Shown here piece by piece: positions 12,889 through 17,747 of a stretch of 64,000 bases of DNA. Positions within the stretch are counted from its first letter, which is position 1, and every line of letters begins with the position of its first letter. This stretch comes from an uncultured Candidatus Saccharibacteria bacterium (GTDB lineage: Bacteria > Patescibacteriota > CALEFQ01): assembly GCA_965230955.1 (NCBI GenBank), contig OZ246404.1:225184-289183 (forward strand), read 5' to 3'. A program made the translations under genes and the position numbers. Under the pieces are notes generated by a model, which ran no database searches, was not told the origin of the DNA, and saw only the letters and a list, made by a program, of their open reading frames with translations.

Positions 12889-13755
12889 ATGTCAGATTTA
12901 AAAACAATCTTTGGTTCCGGCCCTGTTTCAGTCGAGCAGCTGGGTGGCGGCCTGGATAAATTAAACTTTGCGGTTCATTCGCCGGAAGGTTTTTTTATTT
13001 GGCAATTATCCGCGAAACAAATCGATCGGTCTCGTTTCGACCGGCTGGAAAAATTGGCTGAATATCTGGACGGGCGCGGTATCGTCACTCGGCGTTTGGT
13101 GGCGGGGAGCCTGGTGCCTTTGCCGCAGTCATCTTTCCGCTGGTCGGCTGTTTATCGGGGTGTCCCGGGTCGCTCCCAGATGTGGTCGGCCTATTCGCCG
13201 ACTCAGATAAAAAATGCGGTCAAATATTTGGAGTTGATCCATTTGGCCGGACGTGATTTTCCCGAGCGCGCTGAATTGTGCCGGGCCGATCAGCTCTGGC
13301 GCTCTCTGAATCTGGAAACTCTTGGCGTCGAGCGGTCCGGTTATAGGGTGAATACCGAGAAGCTTCGCCGGATTATCGAGCGGTTAAACACCGGGTCGGA
13401 GAAAAACGAATTTGAGACTGTTTTGCACGGTGATTACGGTCGCGCTAATATCATTTTTTCCGATCAGCGGATCGCTGGCGTAGTGGATTTTGATCGGGCG
13501 GTAGTGGGACATCCGGTAGTTGACCTGGGGCGGTTTACGAGCTATCTTTTACTTGATACCGCTATTGCGCGTGCGACCATATTAACGGCCGTTCGTCAAA
13601 ACTATGCCGCTTGTCCCATCGCACCGGCGGATCTGGAAGCCGCGCTGCAATTGGCTTGGTTTCTGGATTGGTTGGCTTGGCGGGACACGCCGTCGGAAAT
13701 GACGCGGAAACTGATTAATCAACTTATTTCTGAACAGTTAATTTTAAAAATATGA
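12889..13755 (+). CDS. aminoglycoside-phosphotransferase-fold (protein-kinase-like) small-molecule kinase; candidate anomeric sugar kinase
   Basis: Brenner/catalytic-loop motif HGDYGRANIIF. Mg-binding VVDFD. Length 288 aa. Confidence 0.6.
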   Translation: MSDLKTIFGSGPVSVEQLGGGLDKLNFAVHSPEGFFIWQLSAKQIDRSRFDRLEKLAEYLDGRGIVTRRLVAGSLVPLPQSSFRWSAVYRGVPGRSQMWSAYSPTQIKNAVKYLELIHLAGRDFPERAELCRADQLWRSLNLETLGVERSGYRVNTEKLRRIIERLNTGSEKNEFETVLHGDYGRANIIFSDQRIAGVVDFDRAVVGHPVVDLGRFTSYLLLDTAIARATILTAVRQNYAACPIAPADLEAALQLAWFLDWLAWRDTPSEMTRKLINQLISEQLILKI

Positions 13756-14318
13756 CCCCGAAACAAATCAATGCCCGTATTTTCACCAATGAAAAAGACT
13801 TGGTCGCTTTGCAGGCCAAACTTCGCCGGCAGAAGAAAAAAATAGTTTTCACCAGCGGCAGTTTTGATTTGATCCACGTCGGACACACTCGTTACTTGGA
13901 AGAAGCCAAAGAGCGGGGCGATATCCTGGTGGTGGGGGTGAGCAGCAACAAAGCGATTCAGAAAGTCAAAGGGCCGAATAAGCCGGTTTTGGATGAAAAG
14001 GTCCGCTCGGAAATGTTGGTCTATTTGCGGGCGGTGGATTACGTGGTGATCTTGCGCCAACCGAGCTGCCTCAAAGCTTTGATGTATCTGAAGCCGGATA
14101 TTTTCATCACCGTCGGGGAGGACTGGAATCAAGGCTGTCAGGAAAGTCCGGAAGCGGAAGCTGTCCGAGACGGCGGCGGACGAGTGGTGGTCTTGCGCCG
14201 ACAATCGCCGAAAATTTCCACGACTTCGATTATTGATAATATTGTGGCGCGACAAATCATGAAGAATTTCAAGCAGGCGCTCGATCAGCATAATGGGGCA
14301 TTAAAAGAAAATGCGTGA
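13752..14318 (+). CDS. cytidylyltransferase-family nucleotidyltransferase (RfaE domain II / HldE C-terminal-like)
   Basis: FTSGSFDLIHVGHTRYLEEAKERGDILVVGVSSN...AVDYVVIL matches the (T/H)xGH nucleotidyltransferase signature and the overall RfaE-II layout. The start overlaps the upstream stop by 4 nt. Confidence 0.65.
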   Translation: MTPKQINARIFTNEKDLVALQAKLRRQKKKIVFTSGSFDLIHVGHTRYLEEAKERGDILVVGVSSNKAIQKVKGPNKPVLDEKVRSEMLVYLRAVDYVVILRQPSCLKALMYLKPDIFITVGEDWNQGCQESPEAEAVRDGGGRVVVLRRQSPKISTTSIIDNIVARQIMKNFKQALDQHNGALKENA

Positions 14319-14772
14319 CGCTTATTATCATGGCGTGATGGCCAAGCTGGACAAGTGTCCTTTTTGTGATTTAAAAGATAAGTACATTATCACCGAGCGT
14401 TCGGGTATGGTGCTGACGGTCAATCTGTTTCCTTATGTGGATTATCACCTGATGATAGTTTCCCGGCGCCATATTGAAACTCTCGGTGAACTGAAGAAAA
14501 ATGAATGGGCGGCGGTGTACTATCTGTCTAAACTGGGATTTGATTTGATTGCTCGGGTCTGGGGCGAGAAGAAAGTCAATATTTTGTATCGCGAAGGTAA
14601 AAATTCCGGAAAAAGCCTGGGCCACTGGCATTGGCATTTGATTCCTTTTGTGCAGGAATCTTTTTCTTTCAAAAAGTTTAGCGTTAAAATCGCTCCGCTG
14701 CGCTCGGCTCAGCGGCTGCGGCGTTTACTTAAAACACGTGGAAATTCAAGACGTAAAAAGAGAGCTGACTAA
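14311..14772 (+). CDS. HIT-family (histidine triad) nucleotide hydrolase/transferase
   Basis: Histidine triad HWHWHLIP. N-terminal Cys pair CPFCD. The basic C-terminal tail may be non-conserved. Confidence 0.7.
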   Translation: MRDAYYHGVMAKLDKCPFCDLKDKYIITERSGMVLTVNLFPYVDYHLMIVSRRHIETLGELKKNEWAAVYYLSKLGFDLIARVWGEKKVNILYREGKNSGKSLGHWHWHLIPFVQESFSFKKFSVKIAPLRSAQRLRRLLKTRGNSRRKKRAD

Positions 14773-15217
14773 GCATCAATTATCCGGGCACGGTAATAAA
14801 ACCGTTTTGGTCGGGATTGGCGTGCTTTACCGTGAAGGAAAATTTCTTTTGACCCGGGCGAAAAACCGCGAATACTGGTGTTTCCCAGGCGGTATATATG
14901 ATGTGGCCGGAGAAACTTTGGAAATGCTGATTGCCCGCGAGTACCGAGAAGAATTGTCGGTCGATATTGAAGTCCTCAGTCCGGTCGATAATCGCCTCGA
15001 TATCAGCAGTACCGGTAATTATTTTCGATTGTTGTCATACTATTTGGTCTGTCAAAAAGACAGTCGTACGCCCCGTTGCGTCGATAACGGCGATCCGGCC
15101 GACCTGGCTGAATTGCGCTGGGTTTCGCTTTCCGAAATCGACTCTTTGCCGACGGCGCTGGATACCAGGCGGATTGCCAAGAAGACGCAGTGGCTGGCGG
15201 AGCATGGGTTGTGTTAG
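14648..15217 (+). CDS. NUDIX hydrolase (true start uncertain; possibly TTG near 14807)
   Basis: Nudix box GGIYDVAGETLEMLIAREYREELSV fits G-x5-E-x7-RE-x2-EE. The ATG ORF start overlaps the HIT gene by 125 nt in another frame. Confidence 0.65.
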   Translation: MCRNLFLSKSLALKSLRCARLSGCGVYLKHVEIQDVKRELTKHQLSGHGNKTVLVGIGVLYREGKFLLTRAKNREYWCFPGGIYDVAGETLEMLIAREYREELSVDIEVLSPVDNRLDISSTGNYFRLLSYYLVCQKDSRTPRCVDNGDPADLAELRWVSLSEIDSLPTALDTRRIAKKTQWLAEHGLC

Positions 15218-15300: not shown

Positions 15301-16236
15301 ATGCCGACAGCATTAGAATTCCCCCAAGACAAAAAAGAAATAGCCGCCTTGGCCGCTAAGCGCCCGGTGATTTTTTTTGCGGCTACGATGAGAATCAGTC
15401 CGGCTCGGTTTAAAGAATTGCTGAAAATAATCCCGCGAGGTTTTACGCCAGTTTTTGGCTTTCATCTCGAAAAAAAGATCGATCGTTTGGACGGCCCGGT
15501 GTTTTTACCGCAACGATCGTGGGCCGGGTTCAAATTACCGAAAATATCGCTGGTCGTTCAATATCGAGAAAAGGATGTCAGTGACCTAGTGGTTGCTTTA
15601 CGGCCCCGGCGTTTGGTGTTTGTTCATGGATCGTGGTGTACGGCGTTGTATTTTCGCGAGGTTTGGCATGCGGCTTTTCAAGCCAATGCTCAGCTGGCGG
15701 TGCAGGATATCAAATTGATTTCACCGTATACCAGAGCGGAAGCGGAAAAGAAAAGAGGAAAATTCGGGAATACCAGTTCGATCAAAACCAGAAAAGCTAC
15801 GATATTTGATCGACGACTTATCAGAAGTGTAGTCCAAGCGGCTTCGCAATCTCTCTGTTGGGTGCGTCAGCGCGGGGCGGTGGTGATACGCGGCCGAAAA
15901 ATTTTGGTCAGCTCGTTTAATCGTGTCTGGCCCTATGATAGTTATTGTTTGGAAAAAGGCTGTGTGCGGGAGGCAAATTTAATTCCCAGCGGACAACAAT
16001 TGGAGAAATGTTTTACCGCCCACGCCGAGACCGGTGTTATCTCTCGGGCCGCACGGCAGGGGATAAAGCTCGATGGCAGTGTCATGTATACTACAACTTT
16101 CCCTTGTATAAATTGCGCCAAGGTAATTGTCGGTAGCGGAATTAAGGAAATTGTTTTTTGGGAAGATTATGCCAATCGTGACGGCGAATTAATTCTGCGC
16201 GGCGGGGGAATCAAACTGACGAAATTGAAAATTTAA
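15301..16236 (+). CDS. dCMP/cytidine-deaminase-fold enzyme (ComEB-like) with an N-terminal domain of about 160 aa of unknown function
   Basis: C-terminal half carries zinc-binding motifs HAETGVISRAARQG...TFPCINCAKVIVGSGIKEIV and CWVRQRGAVVIRGRKILVSSFN...CLEKGC. The N-terminal 160 aa has no match known to me. Confidence 0.7.
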   Translation: MPTALEFPQDKKEIAALAAKRPVIFFAATMRISPARFKELLKIIPRGFTPVFGFHLEKKIDRLDGPVFLPQRSWAGFKLPKISLVVQYREKDVSDLVVALRPRRLVFVHGSWCTALYFREVWHAAFQANAQLAVQDIKLISPYTRAEAEKKRGKFGNTSSIKTRKATIFDRRLIRSVVQAASQSLCWVRQRGAVVIRGRKILVSSFNRVWPYDSYCLEKGCVREANLIPSGQQLEKCFTAHAETGVISRAARQGIKLDGSVMYTTTFPCINCAKVIVGSGIKEIVFWEDYANRDGELILRGGGIKLTKLKI

Positions 16237-16256
16237 TTTTGTAGGGGCGGACCTGT

Positions 16257-17747
16257 GTGTCCGCCCGCGATCATCGCCGGGCGACCACATGGGGTCGCCC
16301 CTACCAAGGCAACAATAATTTCATGCCAAAATCCAATTGGCCCAAGTATTATCACGACAAACTCTATCTCGGTGATCCGAAGTCATCGACGGCTTTGGTG
16401 ACGCTGTGGACGGTCAAAGAAGAAATTTGCCGGAAACTGCCGGCAAAAAGTTTTTGCGTGGCCGGCCAGCTCTATAGCAAGCGGGGGATCAGTTTCCTTT
16501 TGCGCAATATCTTGGCCAACCCGTCGATTCGCACGGTAATCGTTTGCGGGCGGGATGACACGAAATCGGGGCAGGCTCTGCTGGCCTTCGCCAGAAACGG
16601 CGTTGATAACGAATACCGCGTCCGTGGTACAGAAAACTTGGTGATCGACCGGGAAATTCCGCGCGATCGTTTGGAACTAGTTCGACGCCGAGTAAAATTC
16701 ATTAATTTGATAGGCATTGATGATCCGGCCAAGATTTTGCCTGCTGTCCGGCGAATCAAGCCTCAACCGCCATTCGCTCGACCGGAGATTTTCCCTCTGC
16801 CTCAGATTTCGCGCTCCCGTTGCTTGCCGGCCGAAGCCGGAATCCAAACAGTGCGCGGCCGATCGATTAGTACCGTTTGGCCGGCGATTCTGCGTCGGTT
16901 GATGCGCTTTGGGGTGGAGAGCCGACATTTTCACGGCAGCCAGGTTAAAGAGATTTTCAATTTAACCGCGGTGGTTACAGCCGAAAACTCGGCCAAGCCG
17001 AAGCTGATACCGGAATTCGGGTTTACCGCAACGGAATTAAAATCATATATCAAAAATTTTCTGAGCCCGGTCAAGGGCAAGGAAGAGTATACCTACGGCA
17101 GTCGGATGCGCGCTTTTCGAGGGATAAATCAAGTGGATGAGATGGCGCGTAAAATAAAAGGTTACGCCAATGATCGCGGAGCGCTATCGGTGCTTTGGGA
17201 TCCTACCACCGATAACGCGCCGCGCAAAGTTCCATGCTTGAGTTTGGTTCAGGCGAACGGGGAAGGCGATAAAATTAACCTGACGGCATATTTTCGCTCC
17301 AACGATATGTTTAACGGCTGGCCGCGCAATGCTTTCGCGCTTCGAGCTCTGCAGGCGGAACTTGCCAAGAAAACCGGGAAAAAGCTGGGCTGGTTGACGA
17401 CCATTTCAAATTGCGCCCATATTTATGAAAATGAATGGCCGCTGGCCGAGTCCGTGGTCAAAAAGTATTCCACGGCTTCCGCGTTCGAGCCGGATTCCCG
17501 CGGCGACGTTTTGATCGAGGTGCGCGGTAAAAAAATTGCCGTAACTCATTTATCGCCGAGCGGAGAGGTCCTGCATGACTGGTCTTTTGACGGACAAACA
17601 AAAAACGCCGCGCTCAAAATTATCAAGGATTTGCAACGCCAAGAGGTTTTTAGCGATGTTTATCACGCGGCCTATTTAGGAACCGAACTCCAGAAGGCAG
17701 TGCAGGCGATAAAACACAAAAAGAAATATGAGCAGGATAAAGAATAA
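16257..17747 (+). CDS. thymidylate-synthase (ThyA) fold enzyme with an N-terminal extension of about 195 aa: either dTMP synthase or a dUMP-modifying (hydroxymethylase-like) paralogue
   Basis: C-terminal 300 aa aligns by eye to ThyA: SVLWDP vs SAWN; catalytic PCLSLVQ vs PCHAFFQ; YFRSNDMFNGWPRNAFALRAL vs [21 protein letters not shown]; CAHIY vs DTHLY. Confidence 0.6.
   Translation: MSARDHRRATTWGRPYQGNNNFMPKSNWPKYYHDKLYLGDPKSSTALVTLWTVKEEICRKLPAKSFCVAGQLYSKRGISFLLRNILANPSIRTVIVCGRDDTKSGQALLAFARNGVDNEYRVRGTENLVIDREIPRDRLELVRRRVKFINLIGIDDPAKILPAVRRIKPQPPFARPEIFPLPQISRSRCLPAEAGIQTVRGRSISTVWPAILRRLMRFGVESRHFHGSQVKEIFNLTAVVTAENSAKPKLIPEFGFTATELKSYIKNFLSPVKGKEEYTYGSRMRAFRGINQVDEMARKIKGYANDRGALSVLWDPTTDNAPRKVPCLSLVQANGEGDKINLTAYFRSNDMFNGWPRNAFALRALQAELAKKTGKKLGWLTTISNCAHIYENEWPLAESVVKKYSTASAFEPDSRGDVLIEVRGKKIAVTHLSPSGEVLHDWSFDGQTKNAALKIIKDLQRQEVFSDVYHAAYLGTELQKAVQAIKHKKKYEQDKE

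Follow-up and report, generated by a model that had tools for sequence, protein, structure and literature searches.

Why does a bacterium with a reduced genome carry a thymidylate synthase (ThyA) whose catalytic core is embedded between two further domains? This question is raised by a gene of an uncultured Candidatus Saccharibacteria bacterium, located in the 64,000-nucleotide stretch of contig OZ246404.1 (assembly GCA_965230955.1, positions 225,184 to 289,183) that was analysed here and is called the window. All coordinates are those of this whole 64-kb stretch. An open reading frame (ORF) of 496 codons runs on its + strand at 16257..17747, and residue numbers refer to this 496-aa ORF unless the 474-aa numbering, that of the probable gene product, is given. 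An earlier note, made from the sequence alone, had described the product as a ThyA-fold enzyme with an N-terminal extension, in a reduced genome; the 1.14-Mb contig agrees with the last point. We estimate with a probability of roughly 0.6 that the gene encodes a genuine single-gene three-domain thymidylate synthase, in which an MtrA-like domain and a DUF4346 domain form an accessory module that packs on a truncated ThyA core and supplies segments of the cofactor site.

The catalytic part is a short archaeal-type ThyA core at 16845..17471 (+ strand, residues 197-405), as delimited by TIGR03283, PF00303, hidden Markov model (HMM) alignment, and Foldseek. PF00303 (Thymidylat_synt) matched residues 274-405 with 62.5 bits against a cut-off of 24.3. 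TIGR03283 spans residues 198-395 with its profile positions 2-199 of 201 and scored 149.3 bits, which is under its cut-off of 174.55, and no NCBIfam model reached its own cut-off on the window protein. Foldseek of the predicted structure matched many thymidylate synthase structures with a probability of 1.00 and an E value of about 1e-13. Residues were mapped by HMM-profile alignment to E. coli ThyA, for which profile positions 258-375 fall on residues 94-216, in agreement with the E. coli ThyA chains deposited in the PDB. The motifs PC(L), YFRSNDMF-NGWPRN, and CAHIY, which the earlier note had quoted, are all present and map onto E. coli ThyA as it said. The Pro-Cys nucleophile is Cys327 (codon 17235-17237), corresponding to E. 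coli C146, and it is invariant in 116 homologues. Arg347-Ser-Asn-Asp350 corresponds to R166-S167-C168-D169 and Asn358 (codon 17328-17330) to N177 in the second motif, and His388 and Tyr390 of the CAHIY block correspond to H207 and Y209. Tyr280 and Arg307 correspond to Y94 and R126. The dUMP-binding and catalytic set of R166, S167, N177, Y94, H207, Y209, and R126' is thus complete, while the equivalents of R21 and E58 received no confident assignment. The spacing from C146 to Y209 is 63 residues in the window protein and E. coli ThyA alike. Across the family (474-aa numbering), Cys305, Arg325, and Tyr258 are invariant and Asn336 is conserved at 97%; the R126 position is Arg in 85% and Lys in 11%, and the R127 position is Gly or Ala. 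The assignment to the ThyA fold, with an intact dUMP site including the Asn that specifies uracil, was therefore confirmed.

The core is truncated at two places. The segment between the Glu58 helix and Tyr94 is ~16 residues shorter than in E. coli ThyA by manual alignment, and the Trp80/Trp83 loop is shortened. The last ~55 residues of E. coli ThyA, which follow the post-Tyr209 helix and include the C-terminal folate lid, are replaced by DUF4346. ThyA had been placed at residues ~197-470 before; the core was correctly located, but its end lies near 405, and residues 413-494 are DUF4346 that was mistaken for ThyA. The position of E. coli F176 is occupied by Leu or Arg. Signature residues that separate the activities of ThyA-fold enzymes have been described, though they are not absolute: N177D for cytosine, Asp or Glu at L143 for hydroxymethylation, and D169N for flavin-dependent hydroxylation (PMC13326640). 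The window protein has Asn at the N177 position, indicating uracil and not cytosine, and Asp at the D169 position, not the Asn of the flavin hydroxylases. At the L143 position it has Lys, and the family has Lys, Arg, Asn, or Ser, which are neither hydrophobic as in the methylases nor acidic as in the hydroxymethylases. Two branches make up the family, R-S-N-D, which includes the window protein, and R-S-H-[A/D/S], and they are phylogenetically separate.

The N-terminal extension is an MtrA-like Rossmann-type domain (16326..16766, + strand, residues 24-170). It matched Pfam MtrA (PF04208) with an E value of 3e-13 and 50.2 bits (cut-off 25), and PDB entry 5LAA with an E value of 1e-14 directly and 9.5e-21 using the family profile. 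The extension had been said to match nothing, which does not hold, though MtrA is no known accessory domain of ThyA; the view that it is not dihydrofolate reductase (DHFR) was right, as Pfam and NCBIfam scans gave no DHFR family. Its length had been put at ~195 aa. Large extra sequence does precede the core, but it is about 174 aa when counted from the probable start at ATG 16323. The MtrA equivalog model TIGR01111 gave 47 bits against a cut-off of 249, so that the equivalog level is not reached. MtrA is the cobalamin-binding subunit of the methanogen methyl-tetrahydromethanopterin:coenzyme M methyltransferase, and its cobalt ligand His84 is hydrogen-bonded to Glu54 (PMC4915002). In MtrA, the corrin ring is contacted by Asn55 and Asn82, and residues such as Thr53, Gly57, and Asn64 hold the nucleotide tail, which also packs hydrophobically on Val61; a meander motif, GAIPF[YF]xEN, is conserved (PMC4915002). 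In the window protein and family-wide, a two-residue deletion removes the His84 and Asn82 positions. Glu54 is replaced by Lys75 and Asn55 is deleted in the window protein, and both are lost throughout the family. The meander motif is absent from the N-domain, and no conserved His or Cys-rich motif was found there in place of the lost cobalt and corrin residues. Equivalents of the tail pocket are kept, namely Ser74, Gly77, Asn84, and a hydrophobic residue at 81 in the window protein, and Ser/Thr52, Gly55, Ile/Leu59, and Asn62 across the family (474-aa numbering), conserved at 80-100%. The basic residues Lys53 and Arg61 (474-aa numbering) are newly conserved and flank this pocket, and the two cofactor loops are the most conserved parts of the domain. 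Furthermore, the N-domain is followed by ThyA and not by a transmembrane helix, and the neighbours are nucleotide-metabolism genes with no Mtr operon. Judged from these residues, the N-domain is a degenerate MtrA-like domain and not a functional member of the MtrA corrinoid family. Since the cobalt-ligating and corrin-holding residues are lost, the fused domain is most likely not a B12 methyl carrier.

The third domain is DUF4346 (17493..17738, + strand, residues 413-494), which matched PF14251, named "PterinBD-DUF4346", with an E value of 2.7e-14. Modelled alone by AlphaFold2 (AF2), it has a mean predicted local distance difference test score (pLDDT) of 90.6 and consists of three beta-strands followed by two helices. 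Its conserved motifs are D-x-R-G, His470, E-L-x-K-A-E, and a C-terminal Q-D. In Foldseek, DUF4346 alone had no PDB match at E <= 0.001; the weak hits that did appear, to ROK/ASKHA-like and ribosomal proteins, were noise. BLAST and HMM alignments run its first strands together with the classical C-terminal strands of ThyA. We rejected homology between them because DUF4346 occurs without ThyA and Foldseek gave no support.

The two accessory domains belong together. NCBIfam model NF002128 (390 positions) aligns with the N-domain at 146-277 and with the C-domain at 300-369; the window protein scores 98.3 bits (cut-off 568), with the two domains split by the ~210-aa ThyA core. Contiguous MtrA-like and DUF4346 domains were found by tblastn of plasmids in a 458-aa protein from a Planococcus plasmid (L083:464-1837) and a 393-aa protein from Paraburkholderia (L084:5680-6858). 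Both keep the cobalamin motifs TENLG(IE) and GH and add a Cys-rich N-terminal region. D-P-x-G, H-A-x-Y-L-G, E-L-x-x-A-E, and Q-D are the DUF4346 motifs common to the stand-alone and window proteins. Since the stand-alone proteins carry both domains adjacently, the ThyA core was inserted into an MtrA-like/DUF4346 module. The stand-alone family is large, with 2,938 matches, often labelled MtrA, in non-methanogens (loci L083-L087), and its genes are neighboured by ArsR/MerR regulators, copper oxidase, DsbD, and cation-efflux genes. This suggests that the stand-alone family of Cys-rich region, MtrA-like domain, and DUF4346 may be an uncharacterised corrinoid protein tied to metal or metalloid handling.

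The three-domain layout is not peculiar to this contig. A homology search gave 489 proteins; of the 120 best, almost every one carries these three Pfam domains in 460-550 aa, under the source names "thymidylate synthase" or "hypothetical protein". A scan of relatives, with one genome per species, found 146, of which 80 loci were kept, and all locus counts below refer to these 80. They are mostly Patescibacteria, the candidate phyla radiation (CPR), including Paceibacterota, Nealsonbacteria, Dojkabacteria, Kerfeldbacteria, Shapirobacteria, WWE3, and others. DPANN archaea (Woese-, Pace-, Micr-, and Nanoarchaeota) were also among the relatives, as were a small number of Chloroflexota. When the N-domain only was used for an exhaustive search, about 230 representatives of clusters were matched at E <= 1e-10; of the 150 that ranked highest, most are 460-550 aa long. 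The three domains lie in one continuous ORF in the 116 aligned homologues. An annotation fusion of two genes, which the earlier note had considered, is refuted because the same three-domain ORF recurs across these 116 homologues, the 80 loci, and roughly 150-230 cluster representatives. Pairwise identity averages 47.0% in the N-domain, 47.1% in the ThyA core, 47.2% in DUF4346, and 34.8% in the linker between the N-domain and the core. As these identities are equal for the three domains, the accessory domains are constrained as strongly as the catalytic core. A single three-domain match was found when 2.9 million viral contigs were searched.

Two other kinds of ORF were seen in these searches. 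A 188-aa ORF (P0124) on a 1360-bp JGI contig (L088:284-850) encodes nothing but the MtrA-like N-domain, and another ORF, of 105 aa, comes after it. It may be a gene split in nature, but since a short metagenomic contig may contain a frameshift, it is no evidence for one. Stand-alone short ThyA-like cores without accessory domains, with 29-33% identity, occur on two IMG/VR viral contigs (L090:1276-1845 and L091:6001-6597), and these are possibly nucleotide-modifying enzymes.

The full-length AF2 model has a pLDDT of 91.8 and a predicted template modelling score (pTM) of 0.86. The pLDDT dips to about 71 at model residues 160-170. The inter-domain linker (16767..16844, + strand, residues 171-196) is both the least conserved part of the protein and the least confident part of the model. 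The high pTM is consistent with a fixed packing of the domains in the predicted structure. We also carried out an exploratory mean-field direct coupling analysis (DCA) with 238 sequences, about 181 of them effective, and it recovered known hairpins. N-domain residues 56-74 were coupled with DUF4346 residues 398, 443-444, and 461, and both domains were coupled with ThyA helix A; one coupling lies beside the catalytic Cys (73-306, rank 26). These couplings support a fixed three-way assembly as a likely arrangement but do not suffice to locate the active site. With scores normalised by target length, the short flavin-dependent dCMP hydroxylases 9iqu and 9iqc were the best Foldseek matches of the model (TM-score 0.76-0.81).

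Gene context is the strongest functional evidence. The dCMP deaminase gene (15301..16236, + strand; PF00383 on residues 170-286) is immediately upstream and is the most conserved neighbour, present in 56/80 loci and usually directly upstream as in the window. Clustering of neighbours also gave thymidylate kinase in 22 loci and dUTPase in 13. Serine hydroxymethyltransferase (SHMT; about 46-52% identity to E. coli GlyA) is encoded directly downstream in 5 loci and on the opposite strand nearby in a sixth. FolD comes after SHMT in the 5 and is found in 7 loci altogether. In a survey of 4,581 CPR genomes, glyA was present in 81%, folD in 80%, and folA in 55% (PMC11974145). Neither the 64-kb window nor the ±8 kb around the three-domain gene in the 80 loci, which cover a small part of each genome, gave a DHFR, a ThyX, or a second ThyA gene, and phmmer --max with two DHFR sequences found nothing in the window. 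The dTMP-pathway, SHMT, and FolD neighbours together with the intact dUMP residues indicate ordinary dTMP synthesis from methylene-tetrahydrofolate. Thus, conserved residues and gene context point to this as the probable reaction.

The proposed mechanism is as follows. The dCMP deaminase would supply dUMP, and Cys327 would attack C6 of dUMP by the classical Cys-addition mechanism. The one-carbon unit would come from 5,10-methylene-tetrahydrofolate made by SHMT, and the product dTMP would be phosphorylated by thymidylate kinase. The MtrA-like/DUF4346 module is predicted to pack on the truncated core and to replace the folate-binding and closing segments, which are the Trp80/83 loop and the C-terminal ~55 residues; DUF4346 would occupy exactly the place of the classical C-terminal segment in the chain.

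Several observations weigh against this proposal. The Asp169 equivalent, which is Asp in the window protein, is Ala or Ser in ~30% of the family, and this hints that pterin binding may not be classical. The Leu143 position, said to exclude water, is polar here, and methyl and hydroxymethyl chemistry cannot be told apart from the sequence. None of the 80 loci has a DHFR gene near the three-domain gene. Around the stand-alone module genes, no pterin context was found; their neighbourhoods are metal-resistance-like instead, so that the name "PterinBD" is no evidence for pterin binding by DUF4346. Besides, the DCA couplings come from only about 181 effective sequences.

Three other explanations were weighed against the proposed cofactor-site role. 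The most probable of them, which we still consider doubtful, is that the module is regulatory or a scaffold: the degenerate pocket would bind an allosteric nucleotide such as dTTP or dCTP, or the module would merely stabilise or oligomerise the core, with no cofactor role. The pocket residues that are kept are those for the nucleotide (alpha-ribazole phosphate) part of cobalamin, while the corrin contacts are gone, and the new conserved Lys53 and Arg61 flank the pocket. dCMP deaminase, the product of the usual neighbour, is classically regulated by dCTP and dTTP, and DCA puts the N- and C-domains on ThyA helix A and not clearly at the active site. However, stand-alone ~200-aa ThyA cores of methanogens exist without the module, so there is no obvious need for a scaffold, and near-invariant motifs in both accessory domains, in bacteria and archaea, suggest more than packing. 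We regard as unlikely, and less probable than regulation, a module that holds a corrinoid (base-off, without a His ligand), a flavin, or a tightly bound pterin and relays a methyl group or reducing equivalents, so that no dihydrofolate is released and DHFR is unneeded. The cobalamin ligands are present in the closest relatives of the module, the stand-alone proteins. In the fused domain the equivalents that hold the cobalamin tail are preserved and the two cofactor loops are most conserved, and the accessory domains are conserved like the core in streamlined genomes. No DHFR gene was found within ±8 kb in the 80 loci, though SHMT and FolD are present, and 45% of CPR genomes are without folA (PMC11974145). 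ThyA-fold enzymes that use flavin instead of folate are now known (PMC13326640), 9iqu and 9iqc are among the best structural matches, and some family members have another residue in place of the Asp169 equivalent. Against such a relay, His84, Glu54, Asn55, and Asn82 of MtrA are all lost family-wide and the N-domain has no replacement His or Cys-rich motif. Furthermore, the flavin signature D169N is absent, and the adjacency of SHMT and FolD suits ordinary use of methylene-tetrahydrofolate. Most CPR and DPANN organisms are not known to make cobalamin, which also counts against a relay. The suggestion in the earlier note of a bifunctional dTMP synthase survives in its second half: dTMP synthase stands, while bifunctionality is unproven, as there is no DHFR domain and the MtrA-like cofactor ligands are lost. 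The module as an analogue of DHFR was rejected by itself, since no NAD(P)H motif was found and FolA is common in CPR; it is retained only within the relay explanation. The neighbouring cytidylyltransferase-like gene was also considered as a flavin adenine dinucleotide (FAD) synthase and set aside, since it is RfaE-domain-II-like and not clearly a FAD synthase.

The least probable explanation, and in our view a very improbable one, is that the enzyme is a dUMP hydroxymethylase or another base modifier, whose product would be 5-hydroxymethyl-dUMP or another C5 derivative. The polar Leu143 position, the short Trp80/83 loop, and the missing classical C-terminal lid would allow it, and a related methanogen enzyme was reportedly found not to form dTMP in vitro (Krone et al. 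1994). But the Leu143 position is not acidic as is typical of hydroxymethylases, and the family is cellular, with that single three-domain match in the viral contigs. Moreover, the gene shares operons with those for dCMP deaminase, thymidylate kinase, dUTPase, SHMT, and FolD, neither the window nor the loci showed a further thymidylate synthase, and these cells need dTTP. A hydroxymethylase-type modifier had also been proposed in the earlier note, and the cellular distribution and the dTMP-pathway operons make it unlikely. We therefore keep the three-domain thymidylate synthase with a module that completes the cofactor site as the preferred reading.

The extent of the gene differs from that of the ORF. 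The start at GTG 16257 over-extends the coding sequence by 22 codons, and the coding sequence of the three-domain thymidylate synthase probably lies at 16323..17747 (+ strand, 474 aa plus stop), according to the database gene call, the homologue starts, and a codon check. The database gene call (P0001) has 474 aa and is 100% identical to the window protein. The homologue alignment starts at the W6-P7 motif, and all aligned homologues begin at ATG 16323, which is probably the start to judge from the alignment. The first 22 residues of the ORF are almost certainly not made, because the GTG is inside a palindrome and both the database call and the homologues begin at ATG 16323. This palindrome is a near-perfect 64-nt inverted repeat, a long hairpin at 16241..16304 (no strand), within the 86 nt that separate the dCMP deaminase gene from the thymidylate synthase gene, and it gives rise to the spurious GTG start upstream. 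It is GC-rich, with a minimum free energy of -52.2 kcal/mol and a z-score of -6.6 against shuffles. Rfam gave no match for it, and it is not conserved in the relatives examined, save for an identical contig (L001). It could be a terminator, an attenuator, or a strain-specific palindromic element. GC skew is above 0 in each 2-kb bin of the window (1-64000) and the cumulative skew climbs steadily; since the skew is positive throughout, the window apparently lies inside one replichore.

The surrounding genes have further features. The N-terminal ~170 aa of the dCMP deaminase (15301-15810) have no Pfam or NCBIfam match, and this extended form (about 277-315 aa) recurs beside the three-domain gene in 56/80 loci. 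In some relatives (e.g., L008), the extension has an HxGH-like motif, 'FPVIHKGY', reminiscent of nucleotidyltransferases. Upstream of the deaminase-synthase pair (13752-15217) is a trio of genes encoding an RfaE-domain-II-like cytidylyl/adenylyltransferase, a HIT-family protein, and a NUDIX hydrolase. The cytidylyltransferase-like gene recurs in 41/80 loci, HIT in 36/80, and NUDIX in at least 7/80 by clustering. These gene assignments suggest that the trio may be a nucleotide salvage or sanitation operon that feeds dCMP or dUMP.

The domain architecture and the name thymidylate synthase are already in the databases. Full-text literature searches gave no paper that describes or tests the three-domain architecture or DUF4346. 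What appears to be new is an unstudied, strongly conserved two-domain accessory module that has its origin in a corrinoid-protein scaffold and occurs widely in CPR and DPANN. Few enzymes have been studied as well as thymidylate synthase, which is also a drug target, and the present variant appears to be a common form of it in the CPR bacteria and the DPANN archaea, two huge radiations whose members are ultra-small and dependent on hosts. About 55% of the protein consists of domains without an assigned role, conserved like the active site, in genomes that discard what they can. Knowledge of what the module does could show how the one-carbon carrier is bound by truncated archaeal-type ThyA cores, and it bears on the need for DHFR and hence on the proposed folate cross-feeding between CPR and their hosts. 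If the module were an active cofactor station, in which a corrinoid, a flavin, or a captive pterin relays a methyl or hydride, and not a passive lid, it would make a third mechanistic type of thymidylate synthase with no need for DHFR; we give this only a slim chance. The fusion might also be a "Rosetta stone" that names a missing partner of the stand-alone short ThyA of methanogens. Because of the MtrA-like domain, the three-domain genes and their stand-alone relatives are labelled "tetrahydromethanopterin S-methyltransferase subunit A", and this label could mislead surveys of methanogenesis markers and ancestral reconstructions that count MtrA.

Compared with known systems, the window protein shares the fold and the residues C146, R166, S167, D169, N177, Y94, H207, Y209, and R126 with classical ThyA (PF00303; E. 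coli and L. casei), but it has Gly or Ala for R127, a shorter Glu58-Tyr94 region, DUF4346 at its C-terminus, and a polar residue for L143. Bifunctional DHFR-thymidylate synthase (DHFR-TS) of protozoa and plants likewise has an extra domain N-terminal to the synthase and a similar total length, and for this reason it heads the Foldseek list. However, Pfam, NCBIfam, and phmmer found no DHFR domain in the window protein, and superposition of the N-domains is meaningless, with a root-mean-square deviation of about 20 Å. Unlike DHFR-TS, the window protein has a C-terminal domain too, and its synthase is inserted into a pre-existing two-domain module. The N-domain is homologous to MtrA (PDB 5LAA, 5L8X, and 8Q3V) over ~150 residues with the same Rossmann-type topology. 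Equivalents of the tail-binding Thr53, Gly57, Val61, and Asn64 are conserved in it, whereas His84, Glu54, Asn55, Asn82, the meander motif, the transmembrane helix, and the Mtr operon are missing. The stand-alone proteins of NF002128 have the same two domains in the same order as the accessory domains of the window protein; theirs are contiguous, without a ThyA insert, with the cobalamin motifs kept, a Cys-rich N-terminus, and metal-type neighbours. The flavin-dependent dCMP 5-hydroxylases (AfhB of phage HY126, 9iqu/9iqc; gp48 of RB69) have a short ThyA fold in which folate is swapped for another cofactor. They are viral and without accessory domains, and they have Asp for N177, Asn for D169, and an acidic residue for L143, where the window protein has Asn, Asp, and Lys.

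The best match of the core is the methanogen-type thymidylate synthase (TIGR03283), a stand-alone protein of ~200 aa whose one-carbon cofactor specificity is still uncharacterised (PMC9012536). Both are without the folate-loop insertion and the C-terminal ~55 residues of classical ThyA. The window protein differs from it in scoring under the cut-off of the model and in being 474 aa long, with its core embedded between two extra domains. Furthermore, methanogens are presumed to use tetrahydromethanopterin, whereas the hosts of the three-domain enzyme are CPR and DPANN organisms, in which the SHMT and FolD neighbours point to folate.

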